From the IMG/VR virus record IMGVR_UViG_3300031787_000011: a stretch of 64,000 nucleotides of DNA, one strand, 5' to 3'. This document shows, piece after piece, positions 8,216 to 42,035 of this stretch (positions within the stretch are counted from its first letter, which is position 1; each line of letters opens with the position of its first letter). The notes under the pieces are model-generated. The model ran no database searches. It was not told the DNA's origin and saw only the letters and a list, made by a program, of their open reading frames with translations. The position numbers and the translations under genes are program-made. The DNA comes from a virus.

Positions 8216-8436
8216 TATAGTGTCCTCATTATTTCTTTTCTTTGCTTTTCAGAATAAGAAAGCCAGTTTTTGATTTGCTCAGTTGTTCTGCCGCAAGCGA
8301 CACAAATATCATTCTTTAACTTGCATATTCTTACACATGGAGATGAAATTTTATTGCTCCAGTTTATTTCGCTAAAATTATCACGAAATTGCCGACTGAA
8401 GCAATTCCTTGGCTTGTCTCCTTTTCCCGCACTCAT
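8215..8436 (-). CDS. DUF1289-like Cys protein with N-terminal GKGDKPR peptide
   Basis: SPCVRICKL...CVACGRTTEQIKNW. Confidence 0.75.
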   Translation of the reverse strand: MSAGKGDKPRNCFSRQFRDNFSEINWSNKISSPCVRICKLKNDICVACGRTTEQIKNWLSYSEKQRKEIMRTL

Positions 8437-8630
8437 AACTTGGCAAGTTCTTTTATAGCAAATTCGATATCTAAAGTTATTTGCTTCGGTATCAAACCGG
8501 CTTCGTCCATTGTCCTATTGTCTTCTCCTATGCGCCATTTATTAAAATTGTTTAGTCTTTCTGAGACGTCTTTAGGCGTCATTGGCAGACCAGAGAATTG
8601 TTTTGATTTTGATGCCTTCTTTCTTGCCAT
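8433..8630 (-). CDS. hypothetical protein
   Basis: Likely start at MARKKASK. Confidence 0.55.
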   Translation of the reverse strand: MARKKASKSKQFSGLPMTPKDVSERLNNFNKWRIGEDNRTMDEAGLIPKQITLDIEFAIKELAKL

Positions 8631-8787
8631 AATTTGCTCCATAATTATTTTTCTTTTCAAAAAAGTCAAAAAGATCAGCTTTTATTTTTTCTGCGTCTTC
8701 ATGAGAAAATGATTTTGGCAATTCTATTGATAAGTTTACGCCTTTATTGCTCGCACAAGAAACATTATCTTGATTGTTGTTTTGCAT
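8572..8787 (-). CDS. hypothetical protein
   Basis: ORF in co-oriented run; overlaps neighbours. Confidence 0.45.
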   Translation of the reverse strand: MQNNNQDNVSCASNKGVNLSIELPKSFSHEDAEKIKADLFDFFEKKNNYGANYGKKEGIKIKTILWSANDA

Positions 8788-36377: not shown

Positions 36378-36388
36378 AGTTTTGTGTT

Positions 36389-36577
36389 TTAACGCTTACG
36401 TCGAGCTGCTCGCTTGCTTAGGGTTTGTGGATCTGACGCTGCCGCGAATCCGAATGAATTACGCGCAATGCGCTTGGTATCAGTTCGGTGCTGGTTGATC
36501 TTAACAACCTTCTGAACATCAGTCACTGTTAGCCTACCGCAGTCAGACTCGGTAACCGTAATAGAATACTTATTCAT
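36389..36577 (-). CDS. small basic protein
   Basis: ORF with TTGACT upstream and a terminator downstream. Confidence 0.7.
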   Translation of the reverse strand: MNKYSITVTESDCGRLTVTDVQKVVKINQHRTDTKRIARNSFGFAAASDPQTLSKRAARRKR

Positions 36578-36950: not shown

Positions 36951-37658
36951 TCAAAAAGCAAAGGCCGTGCCGCTAGATTTGGGCCAGTTTTCGATATTTT
37001 TCTTGGTTTTGCGAGACTTGGAGAGACTTTTAGTCTCAATAAGTGGGCCATAGATGAGACTAAATAACTCATAAACAGACTGCTTGGAAAAATGACTTTC
37101 TTCGGGCGGCTTAGGAGATGTGTCTTGCCATTCTAAAACATAATCAGCAAGAGCTTCTACTTTCGGGGTGTGGGTCGCTTCTTCATTATTCACTGGAATA
37201 GAAAAAATCTTTTTAAATGGATAAGCGCTTTCTATTTCATATTTCTTAACATGAATTAAAATACCGCCATTTTTTTTCAACCAGTAAACCTCATCGTTTT
37301 CATATTCAGCATGTCTGATATCTGGAATACAAACGATTCTGTCGTTTTTTGTTTTTGGAAATTGAGATATAATTTTAGAAATTTTTCCCGTCCAGTGTGT
37401 GCCTTTAGTTTCGATGCGCTTGACTTTACCATGAAAAACTAAGAAGTCGCGTATTTTGCTCTTATCTTCTCTAGAACAAATTATTGGATCAATCCCGTAA
37501 AGAGACAAAAGAGCGTCCTTGCACTCTTCTTTGATAGAATCTGCCAAAGCAATTCTTTCGAATTCATAGCCTCTTTCCTCAAAAAGCTGCCTGAACATGT
37601 TGCATAAAGAGTCTTTGCCGTCGCCAGCTAGACCTGATATTCCTATTAGTTTATTCAT
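36951..37658 (-). CDS. deoxynucleoside monophosphate kinase-like
   Basis: IGISGLAGDGKD, ALADSIK, IPDIRH..E. Confidence 0.8.
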   Translation of the reverse strand: MNKLIGISGLAGDGKDSLCNMFRQLFEERGYEFERIALADSIKEECKDALLSLYGIDPIICSREDKSKIRDFLVFHGKVKRIETKGTHWTGKISKIISQFPKTKNDRIVCIPDIRHAEYENDEVYWLKKNGGILIHVKKYEIESAYPFKKIFSIPVNNEEATHTPKVEALADYVLEWQDTSPKPPEESHFSKQSVYELFSLIYGPLIETKSLSKSRKTKKNIENWPKSSGTAFAF

Positions 37659-38341: not shown

Positions 38342-38488
38342 ATGATGAAGAAATCAACATCTCAAAAGACAAGAAAGAAGGCCGCTAAGAGTGCGTCTTC
38401 TTCGGGTAACGCAGGAAATACCGGCAACGCTGGAAACGTCGGCAAGGGCGGCCCGCCGAATAAGGCAGGTAAGGGCGGTAAGAAGTAA
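38342..38488 (+). CDS. 48-aa Lys/Gly/Asn-rich peptide (not in ORF track)
   Basis: MMKKSTSQKTRKKAAKSASSSGNAGNTGNAGNVGKGGPPNKAGKGGKK followed by a terminator. Confidence 0.65.
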   Translation: MMKKSTSQKTRKKAAKSASSSGNAGNTGNAGNVGKGGPPNKAGKGGKK

Positions 38489-38493
38489 AACAC

Positions 38494-38522
38494 GGCGCGA
38501 CTAAAAATCGCGCCCTTTTTTT
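38494..38522 (+). terminator. intrinsic terminator
   Basis: GGCGCGA-loop-TCGCGCC then T tract. Confidence 0.8.
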
Positions 38523-40149: not shown

Positions 40150-40557
40150 GTGAACATTATTGAATGCTATCAACTGCTCAACGAATATTTTAACAACCAC
40201 AGTTGTTTCAACGTAAAGAAAAACAGAAAAGAAGTGCTTCTTGTGTCTGACGACGAGTATTCGGAAAACGCTGCTATTATTTGCGCTTTAAAAGAGATGG
40301 AAAAGGCAAACGTGCTTAGGTCGTGTATTTTGGATGGGGAAGAGTATTGGGTTCTTGTAAAACCGCTTGAGTCTTTCACTCAGTCAGTAGAGATTAGCGG
40401 CTTGGTCGCGGCTGGCATAGCTTCTGTTATTAATAATATGTGCCAAGAATTAAACAGCGAATCAGAGAAGTGCGATGTCTTAAATATCACAGAAAAAGAT
40501 TTAAAGAATTTAATTTATATCGCATCTAAGGCTACTCCAGATTCTCTAAAGAAATAA
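40150..40557 (+). CDS. hypothetical protein
   Basis: 135-aa ORF, first gene of the long plus-strand run. Confidence 0.75.
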   Translation: MNIIECYQLLNEYFNNHSCFNVKKNRKEVLLVSDDEYSENAAIICALKEMEKANVLRSCILDGEEYWVLVKPLESFTQSVEISGLVAAGIASVINNMCQELNSESEKCDVLNITEKDLKNLIYIASKATPDSLKK

Positions 40558-40558
40558 T

Positions 40559-40586
40559 TTGACTTTCCAAGAAAACAGGTCATAGT
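40559..40586 (+). promoter_or_regulatory. sigma70-like promoter for the ncRNA-sigma unit
   Basis: TTGACT-N16-CATAGT. Confidence 0.65.
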
Positions 40587-40591
40587 CAGCC

Positions 40592-41043
40592 AGATTGTTG
40601 TGCAGAGGTAGCCGGAGCAAAACCATGCTCACTTAAGAATAAAATCTTATTTAAACTCGTAAGAGACAGCAAGCCCGTTGAAAGACGATAGGAAATTGGG
40701 GGAAACTCCAGCGTGTGTTCGGGAGAGGCCGCGTCGTAACTGAATCCTATTTAAAACTACTAGAAACTTCATTCCTCTCAAAGGAAAAGGCGATGGTGGA
40801 ATGTCTGAAAAAAAGTCGCTGCGCGATCAACAGTCTAATATAGCCAAAAGTAGTCGCTAGCTAAACGGACTCACTAAAGCCGGAAATGCGATGACTGATG
40901 CGGGTACTTTTGGGGTGAATAATATCTTAGATAATAACATCTAAGCTGACCTACTATTGCTTATAGCCAACTCAAGGAAAAGTTAAAGGCGATGGTGGAA
41001 AGGTAAAGTCTCTGTGGTAACACAGAGCATCAAGGAAAAAGTT
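40592..41043 (+). ncRNA. ~440-nt structured RNA candidate (ncRNA or leader) upstream of the sigma gene
   Basis: Four GNRA-capped hairpins, further stems, exact 16-nt direct repeat, no ORF. Confidence 0.65.
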
Positions 41044-41044
41044 T

Positions 41045-41653
41045 ATGTCTAAATCAAAATCTATTAAAGATCTTGATCTTGTTTTGGTTAATAAGGTCAA
41101 AGATAATAACTGCAACGATAGTTTCGAAAAATTATCTAGTTCTTATGATAATTTTTATTTTTCTATAGCAAGAAAATATTCTCAAACTTTGATAAAAATG
41201 GGAATGAGCAAAGAAGAGATTAAATCTGAAAAAGATTTTATTCTTTACAAAGCAATTCAATCTTTTGATGCGAAGCAGAAAACGAAGTTTTCAACTTGGT
41301 TCTGCAATTGCACAAGATATCATTTCCTGAATTTTATTAATTCTAATAAAAAATATGTTCTTAATGAAGGTCTAGACGTAGATGTTTATTTAGATAGGGA
41401 TATTTTAACTGTTACAGATAAAAATAATGATTTGCTTGACTACTTGTCATCTCTTCTATCTTCTTTTAAAGATTCAAGAATAAATGAAGTTTATAAGTTA
41501 AGATACTTTTCTAACAGTGCTAAGCCTGTTACTTGGAATAAAATTGCCAAAAAGCTAAATATTAGCACCCAAACAGCGATCAACCTGCACGAAAAAGCAA
41601 GGGTTTTCTTGAAAAACAAGATTGTTAGTAAAAATTCTTTCGATTTGATTTGA
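41045..41653 (+). CDS. RNA polymerase sigma-70-family factor (regions 2 and 4)
   Basis: LYKAIQSFD...TKFSTW (region 2); VYKLRYF...TWNKIAKKLNISTQTA (region 4 HTH). Confidence 0.88.
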   Translation: MSKSKSIKDLDLVLVNKVKDNNCNDSFEKLSSSYDNFYFSIARKYSQTLIKMGMSKEEIKSEKDFILYKAIQSFDAKQKTKFSTWFCNCTRYHFLNFINSNKKYVLNEGLDVDVYLDRDILTVTDKNNDLLDYLSSLLSSFKDSRINEVYKLRYFSNSAKPVTWNKIAKKLNISTQTAINLHEKARVFLKNKIVSKNSFDLI

Positions 41654-41677
41654 CTTTTTTGTTTTTTTGGTCATAAT
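41650..41677 (+). promoter_or_regulatory. sigma70-like promoter
   Basis: TTGACT-N16-CATAAT-N9-ATG. Confidence 0.65.
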
Positions 41678-42005: not shown

Positions 42006-42035
42006 ACCTACCTATAACAATAGGTAGGTTTTTTT
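42006..42035 (+). terminator. intrinsic terminator
   Basis: ACCTACCTAT-AACA-ATAGGTAGGT then T tract. Confidence 0.8.

Follow-up and report, generated by a model that had tools for sequence, protein, structure and literature searches.

In the 64,000-nucleotide (nt) stretch of viral DNA that we analyzed (IMG/VR virus record IMGVR_UViG_3300031787_000011; hereafter the window), a gap of 487 nt at positions 40558-41044, located between the stop codon of a 135-amino acid (aa) open reading frame (ORF) and the ATG (41045) of a sigma-70-family gene, carries a large structured RNA. Comparison with related phage sequences identifies it as a real, previously undescribed RNA family of ~410 nt, which occurs in uncultured, mostly freshwater, large phages. 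The RNA contains two strands that are kept identical to each other and that could share a common pairing partner, and we propose, at a probability of roughly 0.4, that it works as an RNA switch based on strand exchange, placed at the start of the sigma operon.

Fold, strand, and identity of the RNA

A model that had seen only the letters of the window and a list of its ORFs (hereafter the sequence-only reading) had pointed to this gap as unusually long and ORF-free, and the closer look agrees: with translation table 11, all ORFs within it are spurious and at most 44 aa long. In the homologous gaps, such ORFs vary in presence, frame, and length from phage to phage, and we rejected a protein-coding reading because no open frame is conserved among the relatives. 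The TTGACT-N16-CATAGT promoter that the same reading had named is present and conserved, with a −35 element that is invariant in the first 15 aligned relatives and a −10 element that keeps A2 and T6 at a fixed position, with a spacer that varies. This is the predicted promoter of the RNA. Transcription is predicted to start at ~40593, giving a leader of ~452 nt up to the sigma ATG, close to the ~450 nt that had been claimed. The G+C content amounts to 45% in the RNA versus 26-35% in the flanks, and the plus strand folds better than its shuffles (z = −2.45), whereas the minus strand does not (z = +0.25).

A hand-built structure of 92 proposed pairs was scored on 31 distinct variants; as controls, we used the same helices with their 3′ partners slid by one to three columns. 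Paired cells made up 93.4% of the total in the model versus 37-49% in the slid controls, the covariation score was 0.298 versus 0.05-0.08, and 41 of the 92 pairs change on both sides. For four of five measures, the observed values were reached by none of 500 shuffles. RNAalifold, run on 15 variants, reported compensatory changes for 32 pairs. Many invariant G-U pairs would be A-C on the opposite strand, and the RNA is hence read in the direction of sigma (plus strand). Fold, covariation, and the strand-specific z-score thus bear out the large plus-strand RNA that the sequence-only reading had put forward, and the covariation that it had suggested looking for upstream of homologous sigma genes is indeed there. 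The promoter and the helices of the window are as follows:

40559-40586, plus strand: sigma-70-type promoter of the RNA (TTGACT at 40559-64, 16-nt spacer, CATAGT at 40581-86)
40593-41000, plus strand: core structured RNA, ~408 nt, with a 5′ domain and a 3′ domain
40593-40600 with 40828-40835, plus strand: P1, starting at the predicted transcription start; seven of eight pairs change on both sides
40601-40605 with 40819-40823, plus strand: P2, in at least four versions, all complementary
40615-19 with 40626-30, plus strand: P3, covarying, absent in a distant clade
40634-38 with 40645-49, plus strand: P4, covarying
40656-65, plus strand: P5, GTAA loop; nearly invariant across clades together with its flanks
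40687-93 with 40745-51, plus strand: P6, with compensatory changes
40697-40710, plus strand: P6a, GAAA loop; four of its five positions are paired in all 22 sequences compared across clades
40711-40734, plus strand: P6b/c, GGGA loop, part of the P6 arm
40844-40913, plus strand: P7 domain (70 nt), the most conserved part; 10 of 13 outer pairs change on both sides
Within P7, plus strand: outer helix; 40854-57 with 40900-03; 40860-61 with 40888-89; apical hairpin 40866-82
40926-40945, plus strand: P8, CTTAGAT/ATCTAAG; four of seven pairs change on both sides
41010-41027, plus strand: P9, GTAA loop, specific to a subclade, abutting the sigma ribosome-binding site

In the 5′ domain, P1 and P2 close off P3, P4, P5, the P6 arm, and a hairpin that we call U1, and the 3′ domain consists of P7, followed by P8 and a second hairpin, U2. 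P1 was re-invented in almost every lineage (strands read per sequence). A first candidate for P2, 40607-12/40815-20, was dropped because it showed one-sided changes only; the pairing listed above covaries. P5 was left out of the count of compensatory changes, as it is nearly invariant, with a variant 3-base pair (bp) hairpin in one subclade. Most positions of P7 are paired in all 22 sequences compared across clades, and the domain holds an invariant unpaired stretch of 10 nt at 40890-99; across clades, P7 and P6a show up to four pair types. Invariance across clades also extends to a set of junction sequences. Some of the unpaired cells among the 31 variants come from locus L166 (an ERZ807358 contig of 2.9 kb with a coverage of ~2), where the 5′ strands of P1 and P2 from one lineage meet the 3′ strands of another, so that both helices are broken; this contig is probably a chimeric assembly or a recombinant.

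These data also sort the hairpins that had been picked out by eye from the single sequence. The stems ATAGGA/TCCTAT (P6) and CTTAGAT/ATCTAAG (P8) and the GAAA hairpin at 40697 (P6a) are present and kept by compensatory changes, and the CTC-GTAA-GAG hairpin (P5) is present in nearly invariant form across clades. The CGTT-GAAA-GACG hairpin at 40676 dissolves upon comparison, as the relatives conserve a junction sequence there but no hairpin. P9, the GTAA hairpin at 41010, does exist in the window but is restricted to a subclade; other subclades carry a different hairpin at this place, with GAAA, GCAA, or TTCG loops.

The RNA matches no Rfam family at gathering threshold, among them riboswitches, ribozymes, introns, 6S, transfer-messenger RNA (tmRNA), RNase P, GOLLD, ROOL, HEARO, and T-box. 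In the whole window, Rfam 15 finds eight tRNAs only; a search of 40300-41300 at E-values up to 10 returned only noise of 20 bits or less, and distant family members gave no Rfam hit in the RNA. Several specific identities were considered and rejected. Against a group I intron, there is no RF00028 hit at E up to 10, the 5′ end of the RNA coincides with the predicted +1, and the genes on both sides are complete. 6S RNA is a single long hairpin of ~180-200 nt with a central open-promoter-like bubble; the fold described here is multi-branched, has two domains, and gives no Rfam 6S hit. Apparent likenesses to the tmRNA tag region, RNase P CR-I, the loop of the hairpin ribozyme, and the R/S elements of group I introns (the last a weak one, of two short conserved motifs) find no support from Rfam models or ARAGORN. 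A NusB/S10 boxA-like motif next to P3 lies inside a covarying helix and is absent in locus L020 and a distant clade. The motifs of a 2023 IMG/VR structured-RNA survey measure 29-151 nt (PMC10690425), so that the survey could hold at most pieces of an RNA of ~410 nt.

With such a complex fold and such invariant junction bases, a ribozyme or self-processing leader comes to mind, or else an origin or primer RNA, as the element lies next to a divergent strand switch at ~40100 and upstream of replication genes; the stable hairpin P9 would, moreover, cap a processed sigma mRNA. We consider this quite improbable. No ribozyme or intron model matches even at E up to 10, no exons are present, and no conserved cleavage-site motif was recognized. 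As for a replication origin, which the sequence-only reading had kept as its alternative, nothing origin-like (iterons, an AT-rich unwinding element) is conserved, and the conserved signal is RNA-type, strand-specific pairing with many G-U pairs.

Two identical strands with a potential shared partner

The hairpins U1 and U2 are paralogous, and their 3′ strands contain the exact 16-nt repeat that the sequence-only reading had noticed:

40757-69 with 40787-99, plus strand: U1, strand a with strand b, 6 + 3 pairs around an internal loop
40786-40801, plus strand: repeat copy 1 (b), 16 nt, exact
40951-62 with 40987-98, plus strand: U2, strand a′ with strand b′, 12 pairs; the loop shows CAAGGAAAA, which resembles a Shine-Dalgarno (SD) sequence
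40985-41000, plus strand: repeat copy 2 (b′), identical to copy 1

This repeat is real and goes beyond chance: with three mismatches allowed, none of 100 shuffles gave as many matches. We took the longest internal direct repeat in each of 45 variants, with no prior assumption, and the b/b′ pair came out in 43 of them, at a length of 10-17 nt versus ~7.7 nt in shuffles. The spacing between the copies ranged from 185 to 214 nt across the 45 variants and was mostly 197-200 nt, with the widest range in distant clades. The sequence of b/b′ differs between lineages, with about ten versions, yet the copies match within each RNA; hence, the two copies evolve in concert. The strands a and a′ follow suit, staying complementary to b/b′ through G-U intermediates. 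Across variants, U1 pairs as 6 + 3 (or 3 + 3) with the middle of b in the internal loop, and these b bases still equal the b′ bases that pair with a′. U2 is retained in distant clades with quite different sequences.

The duplex energies show how evenly a′ is matched to its two possible partners. In the window, a′:b and a′:b′ both amount to −16.2 kcal/mol, and a:b to −7.2 kcal/mol; in a distant clade, the corresponding values are −11.6 kcal/mol for both a′ duplexes and −3.4 kcal/mol for a:b. Accordingly, the duplex of a′ with either copy is two to three times as stable as that of a with b. In four-segment attenuators, segment 2 pairs with 1 or 3 and segment 3 with 2 or 4, and hence segment 1 resembles 3 and segment 2 resembles 4. 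That a′ has two identical, equally stable partners is the pattern expected when one strand can choose, as in these attenuators. The junction after P2, at 40606-40612 (GGTAGC-like, with TAGC in all clades), is complementary to a conserved GCTA of a and a′, and this junction could be a third competitor in the pairing network.

The apical part of U1 pairs an SD-like AAGGA to TTCC, and most variants carry an SD-like AAGGA or GAGGA in the loops of U1 and U2; loci L186 and L187 have a U2 loop without GGA. Neither the window nor the complete relative genome described below holds a third copy of the repeat (only two copies each), the complete relative genome contains no extra perfect target for b, and a′-like sequences are not clearly enriched in the phage. 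A small ORF or leader peptide starting from an AUG inside the repeats was rejected: its length would vary from 2 to 31 codons, the frame is not constant, and in one variant both AUGs are replaced by AUA.

The two copies might alternatively be DNA operators for a sequence-specific protein, e.g., the product of the upstream gene with its predicted winged helix, which would co-evolve like immunity operators, overlap the RNA gene, and be bound as a loop of ~198 bp, or ~19 helical turns. The near-constant spacing of 197-200 bp in most variants, the concerted change of both copies, the constant presence of the winged-helix gene next door, and an identity that extends to bases unpaired in U1 would all suit such operators. 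Yet the covariation of a and a′ with b and b′ passes through G-U intermediates and thus reflects a constraint at the RNA level; moreover, there are only two copies, which are not palindromic, their spacing runs from 185 to 214 bp in distant clades, and they lie 200-400 bp downstream of the promoter. We hence judge operators to be an improbable explanation of the repeats.

Relatives and neighboring genes

In IMG/VR, we found 26 loci with a sigma protein 63-91% identical to that of the window; one of them belongs to a contig of 174.5 kb that is rated complete. A 23-nt pattern taken from the RNA occurs in 27 viral stretches and 28 metagenome contigs, and it has no copy in the GTDB genome collection. 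INPHARED holds no close cultured relative, by DNA or by sigma protein, and the polymerase of the window is at most 32% identical to that of any isolate. At each of three distances, the DNA of the gap is more conserved than both flanking genes:

Closest relatives: gap 94.7%, sigma gene 86.5%, upstream gene 81.5% DNA identity
Intermediate relatives: gap 87.7%, sigma gene 81.5%, upstream gene 79% DNA identity
Most distant relatives: gap 76.5%, sigma gene 71%, upstream gene 67% DNA identity

The sigma family forms 851 clusters at 50% identity, and with a covariance model of the P7 domain (R1) and a pattern of the P5 region, the RNA was recovered even where sigma is only 35-41% identical. The genes and the terminator that frame the RNA in the window are:

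40150-40557, plus strand: 135-aa gene directly upstream of the RNA; N-terminal half predicted to be a winged helix
41045-41653, plus strand: sigma-70-family gene, 202 aa, with SD-like CAAGGAAAAA at 41031-41040
42006-42035, plus strand: intrinsic terminator-like hairpin and T-run, after a DUF736-like gene

The downstream gene is, judging from its profile matches, a divergent member of the sigma-70 family with region 2 and region 4 (helix-turn-helix, HTH) in one protein. It matches Pfam Sigma70_r2 at residues 33-102 (6e-5), has an HTH at 152-179, hits PHROG 351 at 1.8e-10 and SigA in the PDB at 6e-4, and aligns end to end with TIGR02937 (8.6e-8, positions 2-164 of 165); we call it divergent because all profile scores are below the curated cut-offs. 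The 135-aa protein has no match in Pfam, PHROG, or NCBIfam. Its AlphaFold model (predicted local distance difference test score, pLDDT, of 82) shows three helices followed by a β-hairpin, with weak Foldseek matches to viral winged-helix DNA-binding proteins (template modeling score 0.6-0.7 over ~70 aa).

Within the window, neither a promoter nor a terminator lies between U2 and the sigma ATG, so that in the clade of the window the sigma mRNA carries the RNA as its 5′ leader, in a unit of RNA, sigma, and DUF736-like gene that likely ends at the 42006-42035 terminator. A second promoter (TTGACT-16 nt-CATAAT) is present at 41650-41677 on the plus strand, where it overlaps the end of the sigma gene and lies 9 nt before the DUF736-like gene. 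About a dozen TTGACTT-16 nt-CATAnT sites precede genes on either strand of the window, the tRNA cluster and virion genes among them. These often lie 5-9 nt from the start codon, as the sequence-only reading had remarked, a distance that would give near-leaderless mRNAs.

Among the relatives, the RNA is syntenic with sigma in all loci, and the 135-aa gene is directly upstream of the RNA at every locus examined. The distance to sigma is less rigid. In distant clades, the gene order is 135-aa winged-helix-like gene, RNA, deoxynucleoside monophosphate (dNMP) kinase gene (in some cases with a 102-aa ORF), sigma, and DUF736-like gene, and the constant neighbor of the RNA is thus the upstream 135-aa gene. 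Loci L186, L203, and L196 show a second promoter-like site, read by eye, after the RNA and ~9 nt ahead of the following start codon. L187 has no gene between the RNA and sigma, but a promoter-like site seems to separate the two. The "RNA-plus-sigma module" of the sequence-only reading accordingly stands as far as synteny is concerned but is not a strict unit, since the dNMP kinase gene intervenes in distant clades, together with a promoter-like site in three of these loci. To judge from this arrangement, the RNA is not simply a leader of the sigma ribosome site. A homologue of the dNMP kinase, 41% identical to the intervening gene, lies at 37095-37649 (minus strand) in the window, i.e., elsewhere, and the gene order around the RNA has been rearranged between clades.

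Several neighboring stretches deserve mention in their own right. At 2640-2975 of L020, a 17-nt motif is present in two copies and U2 is followed by a TTGACA-like site, and the insert at 1290-1500 of L183 folds strongly (−59.5 kcal/mol for 220 nt). Two further relatives by sigma also have ORF-free stretches upstream: L185 has one of ~465 nt (544-1008) between a 144-aa gene and the next ORF, and L188, a short contig, has 259 ORF-free nt (1-259) left before sigma; both lack a detectable copy of the RNA, each carries a G/C-rich terminator-like hairpin instead, and they may represent a different RNA or a very diverged one. L203, a 46-kb viral contig of the distant clade, has a tRNA and a 3′-cut tmRNA match (47.8 bits, with the gathering score at 47) at 8332-8712, ~5 kb away from the RNA; this is a tmRNA borne by the phage or else the flank of a host at an integration site, which could name the host. 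In the window itself, two further G+C-rich gaps were considered as RNAs. The one at 38343-38488 (plus strand) was rejected, as a very basic Gly/Asn/Lys-rich ORF of 48 aa and the strong bidirectional terminator-like hairpin that follows it (38494-38514) explain the G+C peak, and the one at ~36380-36575 looks like a small minus-strand ORF.

The linkage to a small sigma gene also raised the guide RNA that the sequence-only reading had entertained, i.e., an RNA for RNA-guided transcription with sigma. Such a mechanism exists in Bacteroidetes, where the guide RNAs of dCas12f-sigmaE systems likewise combine a structured RNA gene with a linked small sigma gene of the extracytoplasmic function type (PMC13472631). 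In our case, this is very unlikely: the TNB domain of Cas12f/TnpB (PF07282) is absent from the 100%-complete 174.5-kb relative and from a second contig of 127 kb, in a search where 8 of 14 control genomes scored. The RNA furthermore has no guide segment and no hypervariable guide-like end, its neighbors are the 135-aa winged-helix gene and the DUF736-like gene rather than a Cas12f-like protein, and the host type differs (the genes here have SD sequences).

Proposed strand exchange, possible stand-alone action, and known systems

The RNA itself, its fold, strand, promoter, and distribution, and the concerted change of the repeats are established by the data above, and we infer a strand exchange, a sensed signal, and an effect on sigma. 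The RNA is predicted to be transcribed rightward from its own conserved promoter, and the first transcribed bases form the closing helix P1. The four segments would then make up an attenuator-like switch with two states, a:b plus a′:b′ in one and b:a′ in the other, with the 5′ domain selecting the copy that captures a′. In the clade of the window, the RNA leader would thereby set the amount or the timing of sigma, via translation or mRNA stability. That the leader sets how much sigma is made, or when, is most likely for this clade, and its role could extend to the timing of late transcription.

A number of observations weigh against a switch of this kind. Covariation cannot separate b:a′ from b′:a′, and a shared partner in trans, intermolecular swapping, or gene conversion could likewise keep b and b′ identical. 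The b:a′ helix would cross P1/P2 and needs a pseudoknot or an opening of the 5′ domain, and a few variants, namely L181, L183, and the L021 group, have weak a′:b′ helices. We found no output element common to all clades and no terminator after U2; in the predicted fold of the window's RNA, the SD sequence of sigma is free, and only one subclade pairs it, with a UUUCC stretch. Besides the dNMP kinase gene of the distant clades, promoter-like sites (read by eye) come after the RNA in three distant loci, ~9 nt ahead of the next gene in two of them and ~15 nt ahead of sigma itself in the third, and L020 and L183 have 200-330 extra bases between the RNA and sigma. These intervening genes, sites, and bases exclude a conserved core that is tied to the ribosome site of sigma.

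Many of the same facts would be accommodated by an RNA that acts in trans, alone or in a ribonucleoprotein (RNP), and is made or processed as a product of its own, with its fusion to the sigma mRNA being secondary. Candidate partners would be the winged-helix protein, sigma or RNA polymerase, and the ribosome or a CsrA-type protein via the SD-like loops; alternatively, the RNA would assemble into homo-oligomers through pairing of b with the a′ of a second molecule. We see this as a possible, tentatively held alternative. It would suit the three distant loci with a promoter-like site right after the RNA, the other gene ahead of sigma in distant clades, and the winged-helix gene as the invariant neighbor, and its size, many invariant junction bases, and GNRA loops recall ornate phage RNAs; a shared partner in trans or intermolecular swapping would also keep b equal to b′, and the AAGGA/GAGGA loops of U1 and U2 would offer binding sites in most variants. 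Nonetheless, no clade has a terminator or a defined 3′ end after U2, the complete relative genome has no extra perfect target for b, GGA is gone from the U2 loop in some clades, and RNA binding by the winged-helix protein is putative.

Set beside known regulators, the proposed strand-exchange switch is close to attenuators of the trp-leader type and to riboswitch platforms. Here, too, a resembles a′ and b equals b′, and the element comes right after the promoter and ahead of candidate regulated genes. It departs from attenuators in that segments 2 and 3 are ~150 nt apart, with two helix strands and the conserved 70-nt domain between them, and in that it has no terminator, no SD-sequestering output common to all clades, and no conserved leader peptide; in contrast to riboswitches, the candidate sensing domain matches no known aptamer. 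The leader of rpoS and the rpoH thermosensor resemble the ~450-nt leader before sigma in this clade, which could gate translation. Those leaders occlude the ribosome site and are opened by small RNAs or heat, whereas here the SD sequence is free in the predicted fold and the core persists where sigma seems to have its own promoter.

The large ornate RNAs GOLLD, ROOL, and OLE, often borne by phages (PMC12286853), are similar in that they measure several hundred nt, have multiple domains with strong covariation, and occur in phages and lake metagenomes; they also have self-complementary parts that could link molecules, although oligomerization is only putative for the RNA described here. Unlike them, our RNA gives no match to their Rfam models, does not lie next to tRNA genes, is smaller, and is fixed between the winged-helix gene and the sigma operon. 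The packaging RNA (pRNA) of phi29 is likewise a phage RNA in which two distant elements covary by pairing, in that case between molecules that form an oligomer. The pRNA is ~120-170 nt long, is encoded at the genome end, and serves packaging, whereas intermolecular pairing is only possible in our case, and the two RNAs have no similarity in sequence or fold. The GGA-containing SD-like motifs in the U1 and U2 loops and at the sigma ribosome site recall the CsrB/RsmZ sponges and CsrA-bound leaders, but there are two or three such sites only, the GGA is lost from the U2 loop in L186 and L187, and most of the structure is unrelated.

To our knowledge, large and intricately folded bacterial or phage RNAs without an Rfam match are rare. 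Each such RNA characterized so far, among them riboswitches, ribozymes, and RNA cages, taught new biochemistry. The present one lends itself to experiment, as it has a promoter-defined 5′ end, dozens of compensatory changes, fixed neighbors in the winged-helix gene and the sigma operon, and two strands that are kept identical across about ten versions. At its boldest, and we hold this to be rather unlikely, it would represent a new class of large phage RNA built on exchange between two strands kept identical by selection, either inside a single molecule, serving as a timer or sensor through which the phage becomes committed to its own sigma, or between molecules, as an oligomer or an RNP with the winged-helix protein. 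Should the RNA gate the phage sigma, a widespread group of lake phages would commit to late transcription by way of an RNA-based switch; should it act in trans, phage biology would gain a new RNP or RNA assembly. If the strand exchange is true, in cis or between molecules, it would constitute a regulatory device without a described counterpart, present in a large group of uncultured phages.

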